This document shows, piece after piece, positions 3,076 to 45,668 of a DNA stretch of 64,000 bases. Under the pieces are notes generated by a model, which was not told where the DNA came from, ran no database searches, and saw only the letters and a program-made list of their open reading frames with translations. The position numbers were made by a program, and so were the translations under genes. Every line of letters begins with the position of its first letter. The first letter of the stretch is position 1. This DNA comes from Escherichia phage JSE. The stretch is from the sequence record EU863408, one strand, 5' to 3'.

Positions 3076-3612
3076 TTATAAACGAAATTGTACGCCATCA
3101 AAATGAGAACTTGCATTACAGCTATTATAGATAATAAATCCTGTATCTGGCGCTTGTACTACAAATTGACTTGCATTAACAGCGGCAACAGTAAAAATAC
3201 GATCCGTGAGACTATGTTTAATTTCTGTCCCAACTTCCAATGGGATGTACTCTTCCTCTTCGACCCCAACACCAAAACAGCCTTCTTCATGGTACGCCTG
3301 AATCTTTTTATCACAATTACACAGTTTAGCAAAATCAAGCGTATACAATTCACGAGAGTTGTCGGTATAAACCAACACAGATTGATTATGATAGCGAATC
3401 ACATACAGGTTATTATCTTCGTCAACGACACAAAAACTACGGATTTGTGTGCCTTCGCCTTTACTCCAGCAGATATTAACAACCGTTCCCATAATAAAGA
3501 AACTTTCTTTTGTACCAAAGCTAGCCAGTGTGCTAGCGTGCATTTTAACAACTACACCATCACCAATTTCTAACTTGCGAATTTTAATTTCTTTATTCAA
3601 TATACAAAACAT
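3076..3612 (-). CDS. Hypothetical protein (178 aa)
   Basis: ATG at 3612 downstream of TTGACA-16-TATAAT promoter and AGAGAGGA RBS. Confidence 0.5.
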   Translation of the reverse strand: MFCILNKEIKIRKLEIGDGVVVKMHASTLASFGTKESFFIMGTVVNICWSKGEGTQIRSFCVVDEDNNLYVIRYHNQSVLVYTDNSRELYTLDFAKLCNCDKKIQAYHEEGCFGVGVEEEEYIPLEVGTEIKHSLTDRIFTVAAVNASQFVVQAPDTGFIIYNSCNASSHFDGVQFRL

Positions 3613-28324: not shown

Positions 28325-28367
28325 TTTGATACTCCTTAGTAGTTCGTGTTTCGTTTCGATGGGTGTA

Positions 28368-28395
28368 TTATGCTATACACCCTCTCTCGTGTCAA
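28368..28395 (-). promoter_or_regulatory. Early promoter cassette TTGACA-16-CATAAT inside GGGTGTAT/ATACACCC palindrome
   Basis: Minus-strand read; leader ACACCCATCGAAACGAAACAC. Confidence 0.6.
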
Positions 28396-29068: not shown

Positions 29069-29097
29069 ATTGTAGGGGAGTTATCCTCCCCTGTCAA
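29069..29097 (-). promoter_or_regulatory. Early promoter cassette TTGACA-17-TACAAT with palindromic spacer GGGGAGGATAACTCCCC
   Basis: Minus-strand read. Confidence 0.6.
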
Positions 29098-29105
29098 CAC
29101 TTTTA

Positions 29106-29291
29106 TCAGAAATATGCAATATAGTTTGCCAGTCCGACAGAGTCATCATTCGGCATTGCTTTTACTGCCAGTTCAAACCCTGCTTCAACTTTCTGTTTAG
29201 CGGATTCTTCGTTATAACCCCAGATTACCAGAATAGCTACTACGTTTTCTTTGCTTACTGCTTTCAGTGCTTTAGTGATGCGACGTGCCAT
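29106..29291 (-). CDS. Hypothetical small protein (61 aa)
   Basis: ATG 29291 after promoter cassette and conserved leader. Confidence 0.4.
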   Translation of the reverse strand: MARRITKALKAVSKENVVAILVIWGYNEESAKQKVEAGFELAVKAMPNDDSVGLANYIAYF

Positions 29292-29337
29292 AATTTGATT
29301 CTCCGTTTAAGAAAGTGTGTTTCGTTTCGATGGGTGT

Positions 29338-29366
29338 ATTATGCTATAGGCCGGATCTGGTGTCAA
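29338..29366 (-). promoter_or_regulatory. Early promoter cassette TTGACA-17-CATAAT with A/T-rich upstream region
   Basis: Minus-strand read; leader ACACCCATCGAAACGAAACACAC. Confidence 0.6.
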
Positions 29367-29395
29367 CAACTTTTTTTAAAAAAAATTTTTAGGCA

Positions 29396-29421
29396 ATAAA
29401 AAAGCCACTCCGAAGAGTGGC
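29396..29421 (-). terminator. Rho-independent terminator (GCCACUC-UUCG-GAGUGGC + UUUUUU)
   Basis: 7 bp perfect stem, UUCG loop, U6 tail on minus strand. Confidence 0.75.
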
Positions 29422-29570
29422 TTATAGGGAAGGTAGCGAATCTTCCTTGTCTCCAACCTGCTAGCGGCCTAGCAAGTGAATGCTTTAGCGTACCGGATCG
29501 CCCATACGCTGCAATAAATGCGGCTAGGTGACGTCCAAATCATTCTAACCGCGCTGTCTTTAGTTCACTA
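29422..29570 (-). ncRNA. Candidate structured non-coding RNA / long structured 3' UTR
   Basis: 149 nt with no ORF of >=60 aa between a stop codon and a strong terminator; at least four predicted hairpins (GCGGUUAG/CUAGCCGC, AGCGUA/UACGCU, UGCUAG/CUAGCA, GGAAG/CUUCC). Confidence 0.3.
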
Positions 29571-29789
29571 TTATTTATATCGCTTTCTCTCGCGACGTTT
29601 TTGATCTTCTTCCTTGATAGAGTTAAATGCATCAAAAAGACACATGACACTAATAATAAACATAACCGTATTTTCTACGATATCCCACGGCTTCGCATCA
29701 GTACAGATCCCCCAAACGGTAAGAAATGCAAATAGTGCAGAAGAGATCACAAGCATGATACTTGCTAAGATATAAAAAGTCATTTTCAT
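29571..29789 (-). CDS. Small membrane protein (72 aa)
   Basis: Hydrophobic ORF, basic C-terminus. Confidence 0.4.
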   Translation of the reverse strand: MKMTFYILASIMLVISSALFAFLTVWGICTDAKPWDIVENTVMFIISVMCLFDAFNSIKEEDQKRRERKRYK

Positions 29790-30292: not shown

Positions 30293-30490
30293 TCATAGAT
30301 CACAGAGCCATCTTACAGCACCACATAAAGCGATCAAAAGACTAGGTATAAACGAGATTACAACAAGTTTACAAAAATCATCTAAGGTAACACCGGAATA
30401 GCTACCTACTGTAACAACACCGATCATCAGACACAGAAAGAAAACAAATGCAATCAGAAACAAAGTATTGCTAAACAGTTTAGTGATCAT
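30293..30490 (-). CDS. Small membrane protein (65 aa)
   Basis: Hydrophobic ORF. Confidence 0.4.
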   Translation of the reverse strand: MITKLFSNTLFLIAFVFFLCLMIGVVTVGSYSGVTLDDFCKLVVISFIPSLLIALCGAVRWLCDL

Positions 30491-30684
30491 TAGACACCCC
30501 CACGACGATCAATTTCAAAAACTTTTTTACCATCAACGAAGCATGTCACAACTGCCTCGTTGACTTCCGCAAATTGTTGTGTCACCCACTTAAGGTCAGA
30601 GCGAAACAATGTTCTATTAATAACAAATGTTTTACCGCTCTTATCCTTACCCATAAATTTTGCTTTAACCATATCCAATTCCAT
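30490..30684 (-). CDS. Hypothetical small protein (64 aa)
   Basis: ORF. Confidence 0.35.
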   Translation of the reverse strand: MELDMVKAKFMGKDKSGKTFVINRTLFRSDLKWVTQQFAEVNEAVVTCFVDGKKVFEIDRRGGV

Positions 30685-30883: not shown

Positions 30884-30912
30884 ATCTTACTACCCCCGTT
30901 TCATGTTGTCAA
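30884..30912 (-). promoter_or_regulatory. Early promoter cassette TTGACA-17-TAAGAT inside GGGGGTA/TACCCCC palindrome
   Basis: Minus-strand read. Confidence 0.6.
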
Positions 30913-31330: not shown

Positions 31331-31360
31331 ATTATGCTATAGTCGTTTATGGTTGTCAAC
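31331..31360 (-). promoter_or_regulatory. Early promoter TTGACA-18-CATAAT
   Basis: Minus-strand read; leader GCACATATCGAAACGAAACACAC. Confidence 0.55.
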
Positions 31361-31402: not shown

Positions 31403-31867
31403 TTACAGTTTGGTCGTCCACTCCAGGTCTAGATCTTCGACATACTCATGAGATCGGACAATCTCTAAATCGAACTCTAGGTCAGTGCCAAATTTACGCG
31501 CACCAACATCATAAGAAAGCGTGATATGCGGTACATATTCAGGATAATCCCACGTCGCGCCTAAAGCAGTGCCGATATCGTGTCTGAATTGCATGTAGTC
31601 GCTTTCAAATGCCAACACAAGCGCATTAGTACCGGATTGAGTTTCAAACACTTTCAGATGGCATAGAGAGCCTAAAAACTTTTCACCCTCTTCTGGGATA
31701 AACGGAACATAGACACGAGAATATAAGATAGTGCTATGCAGTTTATCACGAGGAACGGCATTAGGCAGATCGTAGAACTCCTGCAATTTTTCAATGCGGT
31801 CTAGTGTATCCTCAGTGAATTTAACAGCCGCATATGTACCTTTAACGGATTCTCGAAACGGGGTCAT
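31403..31867 (-). CDS. acb1: 2H phosphoesterase, anti-CBASS protein Acb1 (T4 gene 57B position)
   Basis: Two H-x-T/S-x motifs (HSTIL, HITLS); 154 aa; immediately downstream of 57A as in T4. Confidence 0.75.
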   Translation of the reverse strand: MTPFRESVKGTYAAVKFTEDTLDRIEKLQEFYDLPNAVPRDKLHSTILYSRVYVPFIPEEGEKFLGSLCHLKVFETQSGTNALVLAFESDYMQFRHDIGTALGATWDYPEYVPHITLSYDVGARKFGTDLEFDLEIVRSHEYVEDLDLEWTTKL

Positions 31868-31869
31868 AA

Positions 31870-32130
31870 TCAAGCCTCCGTGATCAGTTCTACTTCCTCT
31901 TCTGCGTCTTCCGCTGCTTCGTCTTTAGGGAGAAGTGCTTTCACTTCTTCGACAATAGCATCAAGGGAAACAGTCCCGTTTTCGTCTGGCTGAATACCCA
32001 GAATGCGTACCAGTTCCATCAATACACGCTCACGATCTTTCAGTTGGCCTTCTAAGAATGCGGCCTTTTCTTGAGTGTCAAACAGACGTACTTTCAGGAC
32101 ATTAATCATTTGTTCATGCTGATTGGACAT
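31870..32130 (-). CDS. 57A: Tail fiber assembly chaperone gp57A
   Basis: 86 aa acidic coiled-coil protein at the T4 57A position; AGGAGA RBS. Confidence 0.65.
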   Translation of the reverse strand: MSNQHEQMINVLKVRLFDTQEKAAFLEGQLKDRERVLMELVRILGIQPDENGTVSLDAIVEEVKALLPKDEAAEDAEEEVELITEA

Positions 32131-33615: not shown

Positions 33616-33870
33616 ATGACAGAAGACATTTTGTTAAAACTCTATGATCGTCTGGATAACGAATTAGCAACATTGCGGGGTGAAGTTCTCTATTTGTCTA
33701 AATGCAATACAGATCTGCTTAAGCAGATTGCAGAAAGGGATGATCAAATAAAATCCCTTTCAGGTGCATTACGTGATCGCGACAAGGCATTAGAGATTTT
33801 ACAGCGTGTTACCAATAAGGAAGAATTAAAAGACTTCTTACATGGTTATGCTCATGCCATCGATCTATAA
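33616..33870 (+). CDS. Small coiled-coil protein (84 aa) encoded antisense to the surrounding operon
   Basis: GAGGAC RBS; heptad-rich sequence; convergent with 33901..35043 gene and sharing its terminator hairpin. Confidence 0.45.
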   Translation: MTEDILLKLYDRLDNELATLRGEVLYLSKCNTDLLKQIAERDDQIKSLSGALRDRDKALEILQRVTNKEELKDFLHGYAHAIDL

Positions 33871-44680: not shown

Positions 44681-45668
44681 TGAAAATAGTGTGATCTATC
44701 GCTCAATCATTACTAGCAAATTCAGAACAGAAAAACTTCTGAACTTCTATAATTCTGTAGGCGATGGAGCAAATCAAATTACAATTTATGGAACGTTTGG
44801 ACGTTCGGAGCCGTGGTCAGAAAACGAAAAAGAGGTGGGCTTTGCCCCACCTTATCCGACCGATTCAACGGCTGGTGTTGTTGACATGTGGACCCATATG
44901 ATGGGGGCGGTTAAGATTAACAAATCACTTCTTGATGCGGTTATCCCTCGTAAAGATTGGGGTGATACCGGACAGGATAACCCGCGCACATTCTTTATCA
45001 ATGACATTGTTGTTGTCAACTCAGCACCATATAACCGAACTGATGTTGGTAGCGGCTGGATGGTGTATCGCGTAACCGATGTTCCTGAACGCGGTTACTG
45101 CTCGATTTCAAGCATTGACGCTAAAGTAGAGTGTTTGAAGTTGGGCGGAAAGTGGACCCCCACTCATGAATCAATTGCGCCACCTGTAGGAAAGGGCGAT
45201 TCTATTGATATGGGTGATGGGTATCGTTGGGAATATCTGTACACAATTCCACCTGATGCGGCGATCAACCGTTGCACCAATGAACATATTGTTGTACCGT
45301 TCCCCGATGAACTGCGACAAGATCCGGCGCGTTGGGGCTATGACAATGTGATCACATGGTATAATGACTATAATCTTCTTTATCGGCTGAAAGTAGTAAC
45401 TTTGCGTTTTCAGGCTTATATGGACTCTGCGCAATTCCCAACTACCGCGTTAGTGGGTAATACTGGTTTCCGTCAGTTAAGCATTATCCTTAACCCATTG
45501 GAAAAGAAAGCACGCCCTAGCGATCCAGACGTTAAAGCGGTCAAAGATAAGTACCGACCGCAAGACTTAGAGCCACACTCAGGCGAAATGATCTACATGG
45601 AAAACCGACAACCTATCGTTCGGTCATTAGATCAAACAGAACTTGTTTCTGTATTGTTTGAGTTCTAA
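44673..45668 (+). CDS. 8: Baseplate wedge protein gp8
   Basis: 331 aa; synteny and size (T4 gp8 334 aa). Confidence 0.85.
   Translation: MANENSVIYRSIITSKFRTEKLLNFYNSVGDGANQITIYGTFGRSEPWSENEKEVGFAPPYPTDSTAGVVDMWTHMMGAVKINKSLLDAVIPRKDWGDTGQDNPRTFFINDIVVVNSAPYNRTDVGSGWMVYRVTDVPERGYCSISSIDAKVECLKLGGKWTPTHESIAPPVGKGDSIDMGDGYRWEYLYTIPPDAAINRCTNEHIVVPFPDELRQDPARWGYDNVITWYNDYNLLYRLKVVTLRFQAYMDSAQFPTTALVGNTGFRQLSIILNPLEKKARPSDPDVKAVKDKYRPQDLEPHSGEMIYMENRQPIVRSLDQTELVSVLFEF

Follow-up and report, generated by a model that had tools for sequence, protein, structure and literature searches.

The question raised by this locus of Escherichia phage JSE is what selection preserves in a segment of about 150 nt, at positions 29422–29570 of the window (the whole stretch of 64,000 nucleotides analysed here, from sequence record EU863408), which lies on the minus strand between the stop codon of a small gene and the terminator that follows it. 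An earlier note, made from the letters alone, had described the segment as highly structured and free of open reading frames (ORFs) and had suggested that it is either a stable small RNA or a structured 3' untranslated region (3' UTR). Our in silico analysis supports this suggestion, in that the segment has no conserved ORF, bears the marks of selection, shows stem changes that are compatible with G.U pairing and belongs to no Rfam family or tRNA. We think it rather probable, on the evidence of the sequence, that the segment is the gene for a structured non-coding RNA of ~170 nt, specific to Krischvirus, that would be made in two ways: early in infection at the 3' end of the dmd-operon mRNA, and in the late phase as a transcript of its own. 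By its sequence, the window is from a Krischvirus, an RB49-like T4-type coliphage: 1.5 kb round the segment matches 57 complete Krischvirus genomes (RB49, phi1, GEC-3S and others) at 94–98% identity, and the window has the orientation of RB49 (NC_005066). The segment is flanked by the homologues of RB49p118 and RB49p117, and no gene is annotated there in RB49. A few other GenBank records place short pipeline-called ORFs or a 'terminator' feature at the segment, the terminator being annotated as such in several of them, and an RNA is annotated in none.

The features from which the argument starts are these.

29397..29566, minus strand: predicted late transcript of ~170 nt, the candidate small RNA, proposed from fold (z = -4.42), conservation and single copy
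29572..29579, minus strand: TATAAATA, putative T4-type late promoter -10 box, overlapping the Tyr-Lys-stop of the upstream gene, with a predicted start near G29566
29520..29552, minus strand: hairpin 1 (H1), with an 8-bp outer stem (GCGGUUAG/CUAGCCGC), an internal loop, a 4-bp inner stem and a UUGGAC loop
29487..29510, minus strand: hairpin 2 (H2), with a 7-bp stem (AGCGUAU/GUACGCU) and a hypervariable apical part at 29503–29494
29452..29480, minus strand: hairpin 3 (H3), with an 8-bp core, a GCCG loop and a 4-bp lower extension
29428..29446, minus strand: hairpin 4 (H4), GGAAG/CUUCC with loop AUUCGCUAC, in the centroid fold
29397..29423, minus strand: intrinsic terminator, with a 9-bp G+C-rich stem (29423–29402), a UUCG loop and a U6 tract to 29397

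The four hairpins are those that the earlier note had quoted, and all of them recur in both the minimum-free-energy (MFE) and the centroid folds; the core of H3 (UGCUAG-GCCG-CUAGCA) lies at 29476–29457 and can be extended to 29480–29452. The minus-strand transcript also folds better than its shuffles, with z = -2.78 for the 147-nt segment without the terminator (equalled by two of 200 shuffles) and z = -4.1 to -4.4 for segment and terminator together (equalled by none of 200), whereas the plus strand folds worse (z = -1.9). The terminator is as strong as had been claimed, with its stem at 29423–29402 and its U-tract running to 29397. Two features go beyond the earlier description: the late promoter motif at the 5' edge, and a long-range helix that competes with H4. 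The latter, found by RNAalifold and in the full-segment MFE structure, is a 9-bp pairing of the 5' end (UAGUGAACU, 29570–29562) with AGAUUCGCUA, which lies in and beside the H4 loop; according to the folding models, this 5'-end helix could either compete with H4 or, if only the loop takes part, form a pseudoknot with it. Other likenesses sought in the segment by eye led nowhere. The nonamer GGUUAGAAU, at 29541–29549 (minus strand) in H1, is identical to the D-loop region of E. coli tRNA-Asp, and a nearby ACGUCAC resembles the anticodon loop of the same tRNA, but no tRNA model supports a tRNA likeness and both matches are probably due to chance. Comparison with E. coli CRISPR repeats and a search for antiterminator pairing with the terminator gave nothing convincing, nor did the GGA motifs that might bind CsrA (four, against ~2.6 expected).

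How widely the element is distributed could be asked directly. It is present in all 57 full-length Krischvirus records, at 95.6–100% identity (blastn in distant mode, 180-nt query, 50,697 phage records), and in the same search mode the other phages among those records gave only terminator look-alikes of 25–32 nt, 5,426 E. coli genomes gave terminator-like matches only and 72,556 plasmids did not contain the segment; a two-block pattern scan of 185,579 species genomes was likewise without a match. Pattern scans of IMG/VR and metagenomes, together with contigs carrying the upstream protein, added a set of divergent Krischvirus-like contigs (L003/L005, L012–L016, L043 and L057 in our numbering), the pattern scans reaching nothing outside that group, and the family of the upstream protein comprises only six clusters, all at least 83% identical. 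One further contig (L044, OQVL01013596.1, positions 1–50) seemed to carry a variant 3' end but switches within H4 to what appears by eye to be a bacterial gene; it is probably an assembly chimera and was excluded. A covariance model of the RNA body (CM R1) finds one copy in the window and one in the whole RB49 genome, a candidate paralogue at 33657–33760 (12.8 bits, E = 0.34) having been rejected as it lies inside coding sequence. The Rfam scan proposed in the earlier note reached no family: the whole window is empty at the gathering thresholds of Rfam 15, and positions 29300–29650 at E ≤ 10 yield only terminator-driven sub-threshold matches, the best of 26.5 bits against a threshold of 100. 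The statement in that note that no tRNA is evident likewise holds, as ARAGORN detects no tRNA or tmRNA gene in the window and no tRNA or tmRNA model matches 29300–29650 even at E ≤ 10. When antisense targets were sought in the RB49 genome, the longest complement was 12 nt, which is at chance level (~3 such matches expected); it pairs the H4 loop sequence GAUUCGCUACCU, at 29433–29444 (minus strand) of the window, with the coding mRNA of gene 23 (major capsid) at RB49 93,910–93,921 (plus strand). Our literature search found no paper on the element and no Krischvirus transcriptome. To judge from these searches, the element is very probably a new small RNA family restricted to the genus Krischvirus.

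One indication that the segment has a function is how slowly it evolves. Three divergent lineages were compared (the window group, L014 and L012/L003), with the hypervariable tip of H2 excluded from all figures for RNA divergence. Between these lineages the five upstream genes differ pairwise by 10–17% and the adjacent gene by 12–21%, whereas the RNA differs by 1.4–3.5%. Measured by the Nei–Gojobori method, the synonymous divergence (dS) of the neighbouring genes is 0.15–0.87 against L012, 0.14–0.64 against L014 and 0.24–1.14 against L003, while the corresponding differences in the RNA are 0.035, 0.014 and 0.021. In the comparison with SSG23, dS is 0.13–0.49 in six neighbour genes on either side and the RNA difference is 0.007; three genes further downstream have a lower dS, of 0.04–0.06. 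The RNA thus evolves 4–50 times more slowly than neighbouring silent sites, at approximately the non-synonymous rate of well-conserved proteins. The drop in divergence starts near the upstream stop codon and not at the PeSL, as the cassettes of terminator stem-loop plus early promoter in RB49 and phi1 are called (PMC2839356, PMC4122927).

The placement of the few changes that do occur, analysed in 19 sequences, is informative about the structure. Indels and multiple substitutions are confined to the apical loop of H2 and the loop of the terminator: the apical part of H2 (29503–29494) differs between strains in sequence and in length (0, +1 or +2 nt), and the terminator loop is UUCG in most strains but CGAA in FL15, where the stem is kept. 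The U-tract varies in length, and so do, in sequence, a few other unpaired positions of the RNA (13, 38, 59, 87 and 122). Six stem changes affect one side only (H1 has one, H2 four and H4 one). Read on the minus-strand RNA, they are without exception A>G or C>U and so each yield a G.U pair, whereas on the other strand, or in a DNA cruciform, the same six would be A.C mismatches; if transitions fell at random, with a chance of one in two each, six wobble-type changes out of six would be expected about once in 64 times. H1 has a single stem change, U-A to U.G in phage Brandy, and a single loop change, C>U in L012. The changes in H2 comprise a G-C > G.U > A-U covariation, which is the one compensated pair, A-U > G.U twice and C-G > U.G once, and that in H4 is A-U > G.U in L012. 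The core of H3 is invariant, and a C>A change in phage kaaroe breaks a pair of its 4-bp lower extension, the weakest helix. Although 99.4% of cells are paired, almost all pairs are invariant, and paired and unpaired columns are equally constrained, with ~7% variable in each as against 16–36% of columns in the upstream genes. Folding and covariation against homologous regions, the check that the earlier note had put forward, thus had a divided outcome: energy and the placement of variation support the fold, and compensatory changes are minimal. The structure is supported by energy, by placement of variation and by strand-specific wobbles, not by abundant compensatory substitutions.

The motif at the 5' edge of the segment suggests how a discrete RNA might be made. 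The window contains five TATAAATA boxes, and the other four lie 25–35 nt upstream of the starts of rI, 53, 9 and 18. The RB49 genome has 14, of which 12 are located 20–42 nt upstream of late-gene starts (rI, 53, 9, 18, 22, 23, 24, uvsW, 51, 31, 34 and a tail-fibre gene), although only ~2% of genome positions qualify as late-start-proximal and randomly placed boxes would fall almost all inside genes. In the RB49 genome, then, TATAAATA appears nearly always to be a late promoter. One of the two exceptions is the box at the RNA, which has no ORF behind it but only the 150-nt structured segment and its terminator, an arrangement that predicts a late RNA of ~170 nt. Given the usual spacing of T4 late promoters, its start would be near G29566, ~6 nt downstream of the box. 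The other exception, at RB49 94,996–95,003 (plus strand; 44996–45003 of our extract L065), comes directly behind the terminator of gene 23, and the ~365 nt from there to RB49p162 contain short ORFs only; either a second non-coding RNA of the late phase or a late mRNA with a long leader could start from it. According to its annotation, RB49 encodes gp55, gp33 and gp45 (gene 55, a gp33-type 'late promoter transcriptional regulator' and gene 45), and its record annotates some 'hypothetical late promoters', none of them at this box. Of the 18 relatives whose sequence extends over the box, 17 retain it. In the exception, the metagenomic contig L043, the stretch at 3330–3365 (MAVA01000028.1), which corresponds approximately to 29568–29600 of the window, has an A-run longer by one A and a deletion of 14 nt through which both TATAAATA and the stop codon are lost, so that the upstream gene ends at a TGA inside the 5' end of the RNA.

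The early source of the RNA would be the operon at whose 3' end it lies, and the neighbouring features are as follows.

30884..30912, minus strand: early promoter, recognized by sequence, of the dmd operon, whose 3' end is the RNA
30490–30684, minus strand: Dmd (Pfam domain PF17587)
29571–29789, minus strand: ORF of the last of five small proteins, the upstream neighbour of the segment
29338..29366, minus strand: early sigma-70 promoter of the next unit (TTGACA, 17-nt spacer, CATAAT), a boundary outside the RNA
29106–29291, minus strand: ORF of a 61-aa DUF7421 gene, downstream of the RNA

The minus-strand unit comprises, in order, the promoter at 30912–30884, a 52-aa protein, Dmd, five small and mostly membrane proteins, the ORF-free segment, the terminator and the next promoter. 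This early operon is tightly packed, and a terminator first appears after the segment. Near-consensus early promoters recur every few hundred bases on the minus strand (28367–28395, 29069–29097, 29338–29366, 30884–30912 and 31331–31359), each with TTGACA, a 17-nt spacer and then CATAAT, TACAAT or TAAGAT, and ahead of two of them, at 31359 and 29366, stands a terminator stem-loop, which is the PeSL organization described for RB49 and phi1. Just upstream of the dmd operon, at 31403–31873 (minus strand), is a homologue of gene 57B; it is named '57B RNA ligase' in the annotation of RB49 and T4 and matches Pfam family PF23474 (Acb1, anti-CBASS nuclease). An Acb1-domain 57B gene together with dmd marks the neighbourhood as an anti-defence region. 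On the other side, copies of the DUF7421 gene occur in ~110 T1-like siphophages of ~50 kb (SH6, tonn, tunus and others) at 71–78% nucleotide identity, which indicates horizontal sharing of this gene across unrelated phage families. The RNA is outside the stretch shared with these siphophages.

The reading that we favour can be put as follows. Transcription from the early promoter at 30912 would first yield the RNA as the untranslated 3' part of the dmd-operon mRNA; in the late phase of infection a separate primary transcript would begin ~6 nt downstream of TATAAATA (29579–29572) and stop at the terminator (29423–29397). The RNA would fold into three or four hairpins, with a possible interaction between its 5' end and the loop of H4. 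Almost all of its nucleotides, paired or unpaired, are constrained, the tip of H2 being the exception, and constraint over the whole molecule, loops and linkers included, suggests a folded RNA that is recognized as a whole by a specific partner, for which a protein is the likeliest candidate. An antisense RNA with a short seed, or a passive stabilizer, is less expected, since either would tolerate more change outside its seed or stems. The existence of the late transcript, the stability of the RNA, its action in trans and the nature of its partner are all matters that we infer. Several observations weigh against this reading. Searches brought to light no homologue outside Krischvirus and, in the RB49 genome, no target above chance. 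Covariation is minimal: 20 of 500 shuffles reach the observed score, and 238 of 500 likewise have one pair with both sides changed. The number of TATAAATA boxes in the window is not above random (five, against 6.5 expected), so that their placement alone is non-random, and as the box overlaps conserved Tyr-Lys-stop coding its conservation need not reflect promoter function; in L043 the box has been lost, by the 14-nt deletion, and yet the RNA is identical to that of the window. Finally, the downstream DUF7421 gene also has a low dS (0.13–0.16), so that part of the low divergence of the RNA could be that of a recently exchanged block, although the RNA is still 4–5 times less diverged than the silent sites of that gene.

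Among the competing explanations, the most substantial is that the segment is a purely cis-acting, structured 3' UTR that serves to protect or process the early mRNA of the dmd operon (it might, for instance, hold off 3' exonucleases, or direct RegB or RNase E to cleave at the GGAG of 29454–29451), and that TATAAATA is a by-product of the Tyr-Lys-stop codons. In favour of this, the early operon that ends in the segment is closely packed and has no terminator before it, the GGAG is unpaired, in the linker that joins H3 to H4, and RegB is encoded by RB49 (PMC3014915), and L043 has kept the RNA without TATAAATA. A stabilizing structure, however, constrains pairing rather than sequence, and here loops and linkers are as invariant as stems; moreover, for protection of the 3' end the terminator hairpin would by itself suffice, and TATAAATA is otherwise an almost perfect predictor of late promoters in RB49. 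A late promoter motif at the 5' edge favours a discrete small RNA over a mere 3' UTR, and of the two forms offered in the earlier note we infer from the sequence the small RNA, a purely cis-acting role being in our view unlikely. That the constraint is on the DNA, as a protein-binding site, an origin or a recombination site, or that there is no constraint and the block was recently exchanged horizontally together with the downstream gene, is very improbable. Such exchange would be in keeping with Krischvirus genomes being mosaics shuffled at PeSL cassettes (PMC2839356) and with a DUF7421 gene that has a low dS and is itself shared horizontally with T1-like phages. Yet in four independent comparisons the RNA is 4–50 times less diverged than the synonymous sites of every neighbour, the downstream gene included; the boundary of conservation coincides with the stop codon and TATAAATA and not with the PeSL; the variable positions fall on predicted apical loops; and all six one-sided stem changes keep pairing in the minus-strand transcript only. 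Least credible of all is a very small protein, such as the product of a 24-aa ORF (29469–29543, minus strand) or of one of the pipeline-called ORFs, even though some GenBank records show short hypothetical proteins over part of the segment. The description of the segment as ORF-free proved correct, as the longest ORFs between the upstream stop and the terminator are of 24–36 aa and none is conserved. In each candidate frame the reading is interrupted by natural indels of 1 or 2 nt that distinguish otherwise near-identical strains: the 24-aa ORF spans the tip of H2 with its 0-, +1- and +2-nt indels, an ORF starting with TTG (29376–29456, minus strand) spans the terminator loop and the U-tract of variable length, and a plus-strand ORF (29518–29604) spans a 1-nt indel. 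The candidate frames also have no Shine–Dalgarno sequence, and the ORF calls vary in position and strand between records. On account of the frame-breaking indels, we reject coding of a small protein.

A more specific proposal, which does not dispense with the RNA but gives it a role, is that it is a stable anti-defence decoy mimicking ToxI, the RNA of the type III system ToxIN. The decoy would be present both early and late and, with its ToxI-like core in H4 and the H4 loop GAUUCGCUACC paired with the 5' end, perhaps as a circularly permuted pseudoknot, would sequester ToxN, or some other defence nuclease that binds RNA. By neutralizing ToxN in infection it would take the role of the TifA protein, a ToxN inhibitor whose gene lies next to dmd in the 'anti-TA island' of T-even phages (PMC9391042, PMC10853763). 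The resemblance that gave rise to this proposal is exact but short. The 13-mer GAUUCGCUACCUU (29442–29430, the loop and 3' arm of H4) is identical at 13 of 13 positions to the ToxI repeat core on the E. coli ETEC4065 conjugative plasmid NZ_CP122693 (L081, 46595–48074), whose array is one of those collected independently via ToxN homologues on plasmids and has a repeat, GGUGAUUCGCUACCUUUAAGUGCG, that contains the phage 13-mer, and at 12 of 13 positions to the classic ToxI. The classic repeat occurs with 100% identity in pECA1039 and in dozens of small plasmids of enterobacteria; of 75 records that match it, 49 are from Escherichia. When species genomes were scanned for the phage 11-mer in tandem, 11 loci came up, of which at least five are ToxI-like arrays. 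The three that were checked stand directly upstream of PF13958 ToxN genes, which shows this 11-mer as the core of toxN-associated ToxI arrays in distant bacteria. This 11-mer, GATTCGCTACC, is a conserved ToxI repeat core of the ETEC plasmid of E. coli and of ToxIN loci in Aeromonadales, Phenylobacterium and Anaeroplasmataceae (L069, L073, L074, L078 and L079), and arrays with this C-variant core are widespread beside the classic GATTTGCTACC of pECA1039. G-C pairs close the hairpin loop that holds the core, as they do in ToxI, and the 5' end offers a GUGAA with which the UUCGC of the core can pair. The locus is the dmd operon, RB49 has Dmd, and phage phiTE provides a precedent with its pseudo-ToxI (PMC3475682). 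No TifA homologue was found in RB49 by tblastn; on that result, replacement of TifA by the RNA remains speculation. A tblastn search of RB49 with two ToxN proteins for a toxN gene gave nothing better than E = 0.5.

Against such a decoy, two covariance models of ToxN-anchored ToxI units were run on the window with filters off (R2 for the full unit, R3 for its 5' two-thirds); the site is missing from the hits of both at E ≤ 10, and unrelated sites score higher. The likeness to the classic ToxI is marginal (Smith–Waterman p ~0.02, k-mer p 0.03–0.06), and this before correction for the other motifs compared by eye. The conserved core GAUUYGCUACC is present, read by eye, but once in the segment, whereas the ToxI arrays that we fetched have from 2 to 5.6 copies of repeats of 34–40 nt. 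The pseudoknot arrangement is available only in permuted form, from the 5' end to the H4 loop: tandem repeats are lacking, and neither the 3' half of the unit (the 3' strand of S2, with the A19/A20-G21-U22 context), the U4-A13 pair nor an A-rich cleavage or overhang motif is found in cis. ToxI is an H-type pseudoknot (S1, S2, A-minor contacts and a U:U:G triple) that binds ToxN through single-stranded overhangs, and a pseudoknot core deprived of these does not bind (PMC8860590). A decoy of this kind would, besides, leave ~110 equally invariant nucleotides, those of H1 to H3, unexplained. Since profiles do not recover the site, the similarity is marginal, the core is in single copy and the overhangs are missing, we do not file the RNA as a relative of ToxI and consider a decoy role quite improbable. 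Were it true, the RNA would be the counterpart of the T-even TifA protein in this phage's anti-toxin–antitoxin island.

How, then, does the RNA of RB49-like phages compare with known systems? Bacterial small RNAs derived from 3' UTRs, such as CpxQ, SroC and DapZ, share the terminator of their mRNA, and those of type I have a promoter inside the upstream coding sequence. The RB49-like RNA resembles these in its position at the 3' end of an operon, in its intrinsic terminator with a U-tail and in that it may have an internal promoter; it differs in that its predicted promoter is of the phage late (gp55) type, in that the whole RNA and not a short seed is constrained and in having no complementarity to targets in the phage genome above chance. 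With T4 rnaC and rnaD ('species 1 and 2', stable RNAs) it has in common that it is a small, structured, non-coding RNA of a T4-type phage (119–139 nt in T4; PMC3014915), and in both cases the RNAs are on the early strand a few kilobases downstream of gene 57B, a loose synteny. CM R1 nevertheless found no sequence or structure homology between them, giving no match at E ≤ 10 in T4 68000–76000 (L011), the region that holds the tRNAs, rnaC and rnaD. Further, the T4 RNAs are part of a tRNA cluster and rnaC has a tRNA-like T arm, whereas RB49 has no tRNA genes and its RNA no T arm, and the RB49-like RNA has, unlike those of T4, a late-promoter motif and a terminator of its own. Its likeness to ToxI and to the phiTE pseudo-ToxI lies in the 13-nt core in a hairpin loop, in being phage-encoded and non-coding and in the dmd neighbourhood; it is distinguished from them by not being tandem, by lacking the 3' half and the overhangs, by not being recovered by profiles and by carrying the core within a much larger invariant RNA. 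As for the PeSL cassettes, the terminator at 29423–29402 and the promoter at 29366–29338 form one directly downstream of the RNA, and the 150-nt body, being in single copy in the genome, is not itself PeSL sequence. In kind, the RB49-like RNA is thus like RNAs C and D of T4 and, in architecture, like 3'-UTR-derived small RNAs with an internal promoter; on present evidence it is not a new kind of system.

To our knowledge, no trans-acting small RNA has been functionally characterized in any T4-type phage. The roles of RNA C and RNA D of T4 are themselves still unknown (PMC3014915). Against this background, the element described here is a clean, genus-wide candidate, with a putative promoter, a body, a terminator and a strong signature of selection, located beside genes for the anti-defence proteins Acb1 and Dmd. 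RB49 and phi1 can be cultured on E. coli K-12, so that its expression and function are directly testable. If it does prove to be a late-expressed RNA with a protein partner, an Rfam family would be justified and the element would represent a new class of regulator or counter-defence factor in the best-studied family of lytic phages.

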